In this document: positions 3,616 to 4,605 of the stretch, one piece after another
Layout of the letters: each line of letters starts with the position of its first letter
Numbering within the stretch: the first letter of the stretch is position 1
Assembly: GCA_016840425.1 (NCBI GenBank)
Contig: JAEOSI010000010.1
Span: 1 to 22,919 of the forward strand
Origin: Candidatus Wukongarchaeum yapensis
GTDB lineage: Archaea; Asgardarchaeota; Wukongarchaeia; Wukongarchaeales; Wukongarchaeaceae
Length of the DNA: 22,919 nucleotides
Reading direction: 5' to 3'
Notes under the pieces: generated by a model
The model's input: the letters and a program-made list of their open reading frames with translations, nothing else
Database searches by the model: none
Told to the model about the DNA's origin: nothing
Translations under genes and position numbers: made by a program

Positions 3616-4605
3616 TTAGGTTTCTGGACTGTCTGATATCCCGTTCTCAGTTATATAAAAGACACATTCACGTTCCGGTAAGATTGGACTGTCAAATATT
3701 CTAGCTATTCGAGCCGTCCCTCTAGATTTTCTTAAAAGAATACGATGGGTTGGACGATGGGCCCATGCCAATCCAAGAGCGGGTTCTTCGATTTTTCCAT
3801 AAACAACTGCATCAGGATTCATGAGAACTTGGTTTGTTACTAAAATGGCTATGTCATAGATATCTGCATATCTTTGTAGAATTTCTCCGTGACGCATTAA
3901 AAGTTGTTGACGGGCTGGAATCGCCTCTTTTCCTGTGAATTCAGCGCGAAAATGAGAAGCTATAGAGTCTATTATGAGGAGTTTTATGTTGCGCTCTTTA
4001 AAGTATCTTTTTGCTTCGGAAATAAGCAAGGTTAAATGGTTAGTGTTGTATGCTCTTGAAACAAGGATTTTTGATAAAATTTCTTTTGAGTCTAGGTTGG
4101 CCGCAAGGGCCATTTGCACTATTCTTCCAGGGAAAAATGTTCCTTCGGTATCAATAAAATAAGCACTTCCCTCCAAACCTCCTTCTTCTTGAGGTATTTG
4201 GGCGTTTATACATAATTGAAAGCAAAGCTGAGTTTTTCCCGTCCCATAAGCTCCTGCTATCTCTGTGATCGACCCCGTCCAGACTCCACCCGCAAGAATT
4301 TCGTCGAAGCTTGAAGAACCAGTGGTTATGCTCTGTATTCTTTTTTCTTCTTCTAAAAGATCAGAAGCTAGAATAGGCTTTATTTCTAAAGCATTTCTGG
4401 CTTCTCCAATTATTTTAAGAGCGGTTTTAATACCTATACCCATAACTTCTGTGAGAACTGCTGGAGATTCCGTAGCTAAAGCTTCGATGGTGACATAGCC
4501 TTCCTCGCGAGCTTTTTTAGCCATATTTTCTTCCATACTTGGAAGGTCTTCTATTGACCTTATATTTGGGTGACGTTCTCGTTTTTTAGCCAAAGTAACC
4601 ACCAA
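3616..4605 (-). CDS. radA: RadA/Rad51-family ATPase; a divergent paralog with RAD51-paralog-like motifs (would be auto-annotated radA)
   Basis: N-terminal HhH domain, Walker A GAYGTGKT, FIDTEGTF, Walker B LLIIDS, TNQV, C-terminal RIARIFDSP..PERECVFYITENGI. The true start may be the TTG at 4593 (MAKKRE). Confidence 0.9.
   Translation of the reverse strand: MVVTLAKKRERHPNIRSIEDLPSMEENMAKKAREEGYVTIEALATESPAVLTEVMGIGIKTALKIIGEARNALEIKPILASDLLEEEKRIQSITTGSSSFDEILAGGVWTGSITEIAGAYGTGKTQLCFQLCINAQIPQEEGGLEGSAYFIDTEGTFFPGRIVQMALAANLDSKEILSKILVSRAYNTNHLTLLISEAKRYFKERNIKLLIIDSIASHFRAEFTGKEAIPARQQLLMRHGEILQRYADIYDIAILVTNQVLMNPDAVVYGKIEEPALGLAWAHRPTHRILLRKSRGTARIARIFDSPILPERECVFYITENGISDSPET

Follow-up and report, generated by a model that had tools for sequence, protein, structure and literature searches.

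A distinct clade of RadA paralogs in Heimdall-group archaea that shares sequence features with eukaryotic RAD51 paralogs

Results

A RadA-family gene with altered polymerization and DNA-contact motifs

Here, we analyzed a 22,919-nucleotide (nt) stretch of contig JAEOSI010000010.1 from the Asgard archaeon Candidatus Wukongarchaeum yapensis (assembly GCA_016840425.1), hereafter the window, which encodes a RadA/RAD51-family protein in an open reading frame on the minus strand (3616..4605). The gene belongs to a distinct clade of RadA paralogs, which we refer to as the PALG clade, and is most likely functional and maintained by selection. Translation from the TTG codon at 4605 to the stop codon at 3616-3618 yields 329 amino acids (aa); database copies of the protein are 328 aa long and begin at a GTG codon (4602), one codon downstream. 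Pfam models identify a Rad51 domain (257 bits) and an N-terminal HHH_5 domain (36 bits), in agreement with an earlier sequence-only reading of this DNA, which had set the protein apart from RadB by its retention of an N-terminal helix-hairpin-helix domain.

This domain (aa 18-69, 4399..4554; all features described here lie on the minus strand) is helical in an AlphaFold2 model, with predicted local distance difference test (pLDDT) values of 75-94, and comparison of group consensus sequences indicates that the GVG hairpin conserved in the N-domain of archaeal RadA is degenerate in it (PSMEEN). It is followed by the linker KPILASDLLEEE (aa 76-87, 4345..4380), which includes KPILA at the site of the FxxA polymerization motif, with Pro77 in place of Phe and an invariant Ala80. 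The ATPase core comprises the Walker A motif, or P-loop, GAYGTGKT (aa 118-125, 4231..4254), with conserved Lys124 and Thr125; YFIDTEG and the subsequent TFFPGR (4123..4161), with the invariant catalytic Glu154 and a Phe substituted for the Arg of canonical TFRPER; and the Walker B strand LLIIDS (3964..3981), with the invariant Asp213. The L1 DNA-binding region, HFRAEFTGKEAIPARQQ (3904..3954), contains invariant Arg220, Arg232 and Gln233, equivalent to R229, R241 and Q242 of human RAD51 (hRAD51), and the L2 loop, NQV...EE (3784..3834), is one residue longer, carries the invariant Gln259 and is disordered in the model (pLDDT 51-63). Directly beyond L2 lies the signature PALGLAWAHRPTHRILL (aa 275-291, 3733..3783), with Leu277, Leu279, Trp281 and Arg284 as well as a retained His283; here and elsewhere, the strings quoted in the sequence-only reading are found exactly where it had placed them. 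The ATP-cap segment DSPILPERE (3667..3693) includes invariant Asp305, Ser306 and Glu313 along with Arg312, which is specific to the clade. The model as a whole, obtained with the clade alignment, has a mean pLDDT of 88.7, with disorder confined to the N-terminus and L2, and superposes on the protomers of RAD51/RadA filaments (Z score 38.8, root-mean-square deviation 2.1 Å over 313 residues).

We compared 39 clade rows with 90 rows of RadA, RAD51 and DMC1 in an alignment, taking as clade-defining those positions at which a residue is conserved in at least 80% of the clade and shared with at most 10% of the other rows. This comparison revealed eleven clade-defining substitutions, all at positions that are near-invariant in RadA/RAD51/DMC1. 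In the polymerization motif, 95% of the clade rows have Pro where RadA/RAD51/DMC1 have Phe (84%) or Tyr (10%), and Phe86 of hRAD51 aligns with the clade Pro and Ala89 with the invariant Ala. In RAD51, F86 inserts into a hydrophobic pocket of the adjacent protomer (PMC7618403). The Arg of TFRPER (99% of canonical rows; R167 of hRAD51, located beside the FxxA pocket) is replaced with Ser in 82% of the clade and with Phe in the window protein, and the changes in the linker and at the pocket rim are found together in every clade member. Further substitutions include Ala216 for the canonical Thr and, in the helix after L1, Met237, Ala240 and Glu241 for Asn, Leu and His. After L2, Leu277 stands where every one of the 90 canonical rows has the initial Gly of GG(H/N), the GG(H/N) element reads LG(L/F/Y) in the clade, followed by Trp, and the window protein has Leu279 at the phosphate-contacting His/Asn position; Ala280, Trp281 and Arg284 are likewise clade-specific, as is Arg312 in the ATP-cap segment. 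Less strictly lost in the clade are the GVG hairpin, the Glu of GGIET and the FFGDP of L2, the FGEF context of the canonical RadA P-loop becomes (A/S)G(A/E)(Y/F), and the Arg of the L1 GRG (hRAD51 R235) is Lys in the window protein and variable across the clade. In cryo-EM structures of RAD51, N290 and Q242 touch each nucleotide triplet's first phosphate, R241 and R229 touch the others, and R235 intercalates in duplex-bound triplets (PMC7618403). Ten residues are invariant in the clade (K124, E154, D213, R220, R232, Q233, Q259, H283, D305 and S306), corresponding by alignment to the Walker A Lys, the catalytic Glu, the Walker B Asp, hRAD51 R229, R241 and Q242, the γ-phosphate Gln, the trans-acting His (H294) and the ATP cap.

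A conserved paralog next to canonical RadA in Heimdall-group genomes

The PALG deviation is not a product of chance or sequencing error, as it recurs in relatives of the protein. A search of 5.8 billion proteins showed PALG..W in 120 of the 120 best relatives, nearly all of which also have (K/S/A)-P-x-(S/T)-A at the FxxA position; those among the 120 with named records are assigned to Heimdallarchaeota, Hodarchaeales or the 'Asgard group', and the closest public record (93% identity) is labeled Candidatus Hodarchaeota. At the genome level, a back-translated PALGxAWxHRP pattern had a single match in each of 78 Asgard genomes, out of 400 searched, compared with 0 matches for the reversed DNA pattern used as a control. 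Excluding the genome of the window, the motif is encoded in 77 of the 85 genomes from nine GTDB families of the Heimdall group (f1, f2 and f7-f13) and in 0 of the 314 genomes of other Asgard families; the neighboring families without the motif have an Odin-like RadA. One genome of the same order as the window organism is designated a 'Heimdallarchaeota' metagenome-assembled genome (MAG). The motif reads PALGEAWSH in f10, and the linker of f13 has a shifted Phe (QQFSA). Conversely, across 80 RadA loci from DPANN, Euryarchaeota, TACK and other Asgard archaea, every protein outside the clade keeps x-x-G-G-(H/N)-x-x-x-H. Thus, PALGxxW, which would have lost its meaning as a signature if common in ordinary RadA, is absent from the ordinary orthologs examined across Archaea, and it was found in none of the RadB-like proteins or other Heimdall paralogs examined.

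The window gene coexists with other members of the family. Its genome (2.16 Mb in 277 contigs, with an estimated completeness of 92% and contamination of 3.3%) encodes three full-length RadA-family proteins and one RadB-like protein (249 aa; contig C119, L008:1447-2196, plus strand). The sequence-only reading had proposed a search for a separate canonical RadA with FxxA and GGH, and there are two on other contigs of the genome, one with GFKSA and AVGGHVMAH (contig C41, L005:529-1491, minus strand) and one with DFVTA and PIGGHVVAH (contig C108, L006:1495-2568, minus strand). A congeneric genome (G399, 87% complete) has the C41-type canonical copy only, so the C108 copy could be a true third paralog, could be missing from the incomplete G399 assembly or could be a contaminant, given the estimated 3.3%. 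With the RadA equivalog model TIGR02236 (cut-off 361), the C41 and C108 siblings score 460 and 453 bits, respectively, and the window protein scores 343 bits, two other clade members scoring 324 and 308, all three below the cut-off. The window protein passes the laxer NF003301 model (364 bits, cut-off 259), and because clade members pass this model, public records label them 'RadA'. The RadB model TIGR02237 (cut-off 172) gives the window protein 99 bits.

This arrangement is general in the clade. All 11 PALG-encoding genomes inspected, four of them single-contig, contain about three to five full-length Rad51-family genes, namely a single PALG gene and one to four others that keep GG, as well as RadB-like genes, compared with one or two full-length Rad51-family genes in five Asgard genomes lacking PALG. 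The gene is also present in closed Heimdall chromosomes and in the congeneric genome, and the dN/dS ratio against the congeneric copy (L043) is 0.17, indicative of purifying selection. The window locus was further recovered on contigs from independent metagenomes of marine sediment, mangrove and marsh (13 studies). The only metatranscriptomic match was a 481-nt contig from one metatranscriptome, of which 209 nt match the locus and the rest is unlike it; this is no evidence of expression.

Similarity to RadA and to the eukaryotic RAD51 paralogs

Overall, the window protein is of the RadA/RAD51 type and closer to RadA than to the RAD51 paralogs. In phmmer searches against all PDB sequences, it scored 287 bits with Pyrococcus furiosus RadA and 282 with Saccharolobus solfataricus RadA, 216-219 with human RAD51, 196-203 with DMC1, 104-112 with RAD51C, 90-106 with XRCC3 and 96 with RAD51B. 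Neither restricting the query to the C-terminal 85 aa nor using a profile of the Walker A region altered this ranking, and the neighbors in protein-language-model space were RadA and RAD51 clusters, with no paralogs among them. The claim that the Walker A region closely parallels RAD51C is therefore not borne out, with RadA scoring 105-108 bits and RAD51C 79-87. Compared with canonical RadA (P. furiosus, 1PZN; S. solfataricus, 2BKE), the window protein has the same two-domain architecture, about 43-50% identity, a filament-type predicted fold and all of the ATPase motifs, the L1 Arg/Arg/Gln, the trans-acting His and the ATP cap, and it differs in the Phe-to-Pro linker, the Phe (Ser in the clade) at the TFRPER Arg, the LG(L/F/Y) plus Trp element and its status as an extra copy.

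Against this background, the balance of scores is shifted toward the paralogs. The window protein scores about 85 bits below its canonical siblings against RadA and RAD51, but exceeds them by 7-30 bits against RAD51B, RAD51C and XRCC3: 106-112 bits compared with at most 84 for RAD51C; 106 compared with 96 and 80, and 90 compared with at most 83, for XRCC3; and 96 compared with 83 and 69 for RAD51B. The PALG segment was considered as the source of this excess and rejected, as the C-terminal 85 aa score 22 bits against RAD51C and those of a canonical sibling 20. A 23-column profile of the motif searched against 177,635 PDB sequences had a single match, human RAD51D (KPALGRSWSFVPSTRILL; chain 8faz_D, residues 261-278), at an E value of 1.8, and the shorter queries, a 24-aa sequence and an 11-column profile, had no matches in the PDB. 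The RAD51D string quoted in the sequence-only reading is thus present in the deposited chain. For the linker, the part of that reading that stands is the replacement of FxxA with KPILA and the existence of the quoted RAD51C string TALELLEQEHTQG (residues 86-98), whereas the proposed similarity between the two is not significant (E 0.6-0.7). Residue L264 of RAD51D falls within its segment by the 8faz_D numbering, and S304 of RAD51C presumably lies within its own PALG segment. Both residues contact the backbone of non-stretched single-stranded DNA (ssDNA) (PMC7618403). More generally, RAD51 paralogs have 20-30% sequence similarity to RAD51 (PMC7618403); the subunits of the BCDX2 complex lack FxxA, and XRCC3, with Ile62 at the F86 position, still accepts the FxxA of RAD51 (PMC13186703).

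Taken together, the proposal that the protein carries signatures of the RAD51 paralogs holds for specific features, namely the absence of the FxxA Phe and of GG(H/N) and a PALGxxW shared with at least RAD51D, but not for the sequence as a whole. Like the paralogs, it combines an N-domain with the ATPase core (XRCC2 excepted), lacks the FxxA Phe, coexists with a main recombinase, has PALGxxW after L2 (verified for RAD51D) and keeps the active-site Glu, as in RAD51B, RAD51C and XRCC3; unlike them, it is much less diverged from RadA, its pocket is seemingly open and it scores only 90-112 bits against them. RadB is similarly a RecA-fold paralog found beside RadA and has been proposed to cap RadA filaments (PMC7618403), but it lacks the N-domain and PALG and is about 220-250 aa long, compared with 329 aa and an N-domain in the window protein.

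Phylogeny

Phylogenetic trees were built from archaeal RadA of many phyla, Heimdall paralogs, RadB-like outgroups and, as the only eukaryotic rows, RAD51 and DMC1, with the motif columns retained in the alignments. The eukaryotic sequences came from an exhaustive search; among the ten checked with NCBIfam, five were above the RAD51/DMC1 cut-off and the rest had their best scores on those models but below it. The PALG clade is monophyletic in both a quick tree (support 99) and a careful tree (100/100), and sits on a long stem of 0.82. It falls outside the clade that unites canonical RadA of Heimdall, Loki and Hermod archaea with the eukaryotic recombinases, the backbone being a polytomy; there is no supported nesting within canonical Heimdall RadA, an outcome that would have spoken against a separate paralog. 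In approximately unbiased (AU) tests, neither the grouping of the PALG clade with Asgard RadA plus eukaryotes (p 0.53) nor that with RAD51/DMC1 (p 0.35) was rejected, and for this reason we do not place the clade within RadA/RAD51.

In tree 1, the PALG clade grouped with a RadA from an uncultured member of Bathyarchaeia (L073, CAZQWG010000001.1; support 95), a placement that we judged to be likely long-branch attraction, and the sequence was removed; this long-branch RadA has PAGGHVLAH and no FxxA matched by pattern. In the same tree, two members of a different Heimdall paralog clade (L129/L130) were sister to eukaryotic RAD51 plus DMC1 (97), and L129 stood beside them, weakly, in the careful tree (84/57).

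Other RadA lineages, variant forms and gene neighborhoods

Heimdall-group genomes contain at least four full-length RadA lineages in addition to RadB-like genes. One separate paralog clade, comprising L129/L130 (G016/G015), L149 (G042), L150 (G047) and L153 (G010), is distinguished by 'NPG/NPA' in L2, 'GGNI(M/I)GHWA' and TFSPSR. Another, very divergent clade with very long branches and Pfam scores of 126-206 bits (L139/L140 from G015/G016, L159 and L162 from G082, L160 from G042 and L163 from G047) has the motif 'GG(F/H/E/A)..(G/A/E)HASD(I/M)R'.

No longer or fused PALG forms were found among the database matches, the 56 longer ones being intein-containing RadA without PALG. The long matches P0272-P0327 carry intein and LAGLIDADG domains, and much of the top-ranking set of RadA representatives (P0124-P0199) is 500-1390 aa long, many of its members aligning with the query in two or three separate stretches. 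In one genome locus, L132 (G065:C1:2977901-2981605), no stop codon separates the PALG frame from the downstream gene, and the frame stays open over at least 821 codons, as far as the edge of the locus (1964 aa in the frame from the genome search); in the related genome G067 (L143), the same downstream gene is a separate gene with tetratricopeptide repeats (TPR). The long frame is either a true fusion or an assembly error.

In the window, the gene is followed, 50 nt downstream on the same strand, by a SIS-domain gene (2468-3565), and is divergent from a gene for a pyridoxal phosphate-dependent enzyme of the SepSecS/SepCysS family (4972-6195, plus strand). Further genes encode a P-type cation ATPase (6201-8927, minus strand), a DUF711 protein (10711-12108, plus strand) and a Sua5/YrdC-family protein (12115-12756, minus strand); there is no obvious recombination partner among the window neighbors. 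Recurrent neighbors of PALG genes occur within family f8 only, apart from a RimK-like ATP-grasp gene that adjoins the PALG gene in f11 (L143:2559-3461) and f7 (L157:2615-3478) and is absent from this position in the window and in f2, f8, f9, f10 and f13.

Discussion

The combination of retained and replaced residues bears on what the PALG protein does. In our assessment, with a probability of roughly one half, it would serve canonical RadA as an ATP-dependent accessory subunit, assembling with it on ssDNA and nucleating or capping the filament at one end. We favor this function because the residues of the ATP site and the contacts to the DNA backbone are kept, whereas the polymerization Phe, the intercalating Arg, L2 and GG(H/N) are replaced, as in the eukaryotic paralogs. 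The Walker A and B motifs, the catalytic Glu, the γ-phosphate Gln, the trans-acting His and the ATP cap would allow ATP binding and hydrolysis at a RecA-type interface, and the L1 Arg/Arg/Gln could still hold the ssDNA backbone. By contrast, the features of a self-polymerizing strand-exchange protein have been lost, namely the FxxA Phe 'ball' and the Arg next to the pocket that receives it, the L1 Arg that intercalates, the L2 consensus and GG(H/N). The hydrophobic pocket itself looks unoccluded in the alignment, and could thus receive the FxxA of RadA; because the subunit would have no Phe to donate onward, it might occupy, nucleate or cap one end of the filament. There, it may hold ssDNA in a non-stretched mode, functionally resembling XRCC3 and RAD51C. 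The gene, its clade and distribution, the co-occurrence with other RadA genes, the pattern of substitutions and the purifying selection are established by the data above, and from these features we infer ATPase activity, DNA binding, RadA binding, and end-capping or nucleation for the PALG protein.

Structure prediction for the window protein with canonical RadA (the C108 copy) gave weak support for a complex, with a score of 0.36, compared with 0.00 for the best control, with at least 69% of the contacts in common among runs and a partner pLDDT of at least 76. The prediction passes the mark used for such complexes, which 58 of 80 solved complexes also reach, as do 2 of 110 mismatched pairs; among those passing, scores of 0.60 or lower belonged to 7 of the 80 solved complexes and to both mismatches.

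Several observations weigh against an accessory role. The predicted complex is weak evidence and is not independent of known structures; it may reflect memory of solved RadA/RAD51 filaments. The integrity of the pocket is judged from the alignment, and the Phe-to-Pro change of the 'ball' together with the Arg-to-Ser or Phe change of the rim would equally fit a private homotypic interface, just as the intact ATPase and backbone-binding residues would suit an independent recombinase. In f9 and f10 (single genomes, 87-94% complete), no PD-type canonical RadA was found, only other GG-type paralogs, and across families no conserved neighbor gene hints at a partner.

The provenance of the clade is a question separate from its function. 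Eukaryotes have five RAD51 paralogs that load and cap RAD51 filaments and in which mutations cause breast and ovarian cancer or Fanconi anemia; their origin is usually traced to archaeal RadB, which lacks the N-domain. A tentative alternative, compatible with either functional reading and in our view rather doubtful, is that the PALG clade and the N-domain-bearing RAD51B, RAD51C, RAD51D and XRCC3 evolved from one ancestor, from which PALGxxW and the loss of FxxA were inherited. If so, the PALG clade might be what survives in archaea of their sister group or stem lineage, in place of a derivation from RadB, although we hold this, too, to be somewhat improbable. Several observations point in this direction: the 23-column motif profile retrieves only RAD51D; the window protein outscores its siblings against RAD51C, XRCC3 and RAD51B despite scoring about 85 bits less against RadA/RAD51; and the motif was found in no RadB-like protein or other Heimdall paralog. 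Clade members occur in every Heimdall-group family sampled, among them records that carry the name Hodarchaeales, and hence a copy was probably present in the lineage leading to eukaryotes. The f10 variant of the motif, PALGEAWSH, and the lack of FxxA in the paralogs as well (PMC13186703) are also consistent with shared descent. However, overall similarity, language-model neighbors and fold all point to RadA/RAD51, the motif match is at E = 1.8 with shorter queries empty, and the C-terminus, which bears the motif, is not the source of the extra paralog score. Furthermore, the shared states are located at DNA and subunit contacts, where functional shifts could converge. A study by Lin in 2006 and another published study are also said to have grouped the paralogs with RadB.

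The main functional alternative, unlikely but coherent, is that the PALG protein is a second, self-sufficient recombinase, which would form its own filaments through a co-evolved interface between PxxA and the pocket rim, exchange strands by means of altered DNA-binding loops and act on another substrate or under another condition, much as DMC1 relates to RAD51. Such a role would fit the full-length architecture and filament-type model, the invariance of the ATPase residues, trans-acting His, ATP cap and L1 Arg/Arg/Gln, the co-occurrence of the linker and rim changes throughout the clade, and a single copy under strong constraint; the invariant Ala80 of the linker and the shifted Phe of f13 would fit as well. 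Yet the Phe is Pro in 95% of the rows, and the L1 Arg, the L2 consensus and the residue after GG are lost or unconserved; RAD51 structures give these features a central part in the binding of stretched triplets and in strand exchange (PMC7618403), and the eukaryotic proteins with such losses are accessory factors (PMC7618403, PMC13186703). Finally, it is highly improbable that the gene is an ordinary RadA ortholog, a decaying duplicate or an assembly contaminant, notwithstanding its NF003301 score, its public name and the 3.3% contamination of the MAG, given that it scores about 100 bits under both siblings and falls under the cut-off of TIGR02236, belongs to a clade that is spread over nine GTDB families with invariant catalytic residues, evolves at a dN/dS of 0.17, and is also present in the congeneric genome and closed Heimdall chromosomes.

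Published work describes the kind of gene but not its distinguishing traits. Two recent studies document that Heimdall-group Asgard archaea have duplicated RadA genes within a single MAG. In one, Matsuo et al. (2025) found the RadA of Heimdall-, Njord- and Gerdarchaea to fall into two clades, with the origins of RAD51/DMC1 alone analyzed, and their text makes no mention of motifs, Walker boxes or RAD51B/C/D/XRCC paralogs (PMC12722695). In its distribution, the PALG clade resembles their second RadA clade, being monophyletic, limited to Heimdall-group families and located beside another RadA. In the other, Ferlez et al. defined 18 groups of Asgard recombinases with a focus on L2 and no discussion of paralogs, of which group 12, with 'PG/PA' in L2, is nearest to RAD51/DMC1 (bioRxiv 10.1101/2025.02.19.639135); that group is a Heimdall paralog different from the PALG clade, and the L129/L149 type fits its description. 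A 2026 structural-clustering preprint lists, without detail, an Asgard RadA/RAD51 cluster in which RAD51D is the dominant eukaryotic member. In our literature searches, we found no paper that links Asgard recombinases to RAD51C or XRCC3, and a full-text search returned none with PALG motif strings. The window gene is accordingly of a known kind, the Asgard RadA duplicates, whereas its defining features and its likeness to RAD51 paralogs are not described in the literature examined.

The analysis thus defines, in the archaeal group closest to eukaryotes and in genomes with three to five RadA-family genes, a conserved, full-length RadA paralog that has undergone the same kinds of change as the RAD51 paralogs: the polymerization Phe is lost, and PALGxxW occupies the site of DNA contact at which RAD51 carries GGN. 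At a practical level, automatic 'RadA' annotations in Heimdall-group MAGs should be treated with caution, as they mix at least four distinct lineages. For the biology of the family, two questions are opened, namely whether accessory recombinase subunits predate eukaryotes and whether the eukaryotic paralogs descend from the PALG clade. If the PALG clade is indeed the sister or stem lineage of those paralogs, the division between a filament-forming recombinase and filament-end or mediator subunits would have arisen in Heimdall-group archaea, before eukaryogenesis.

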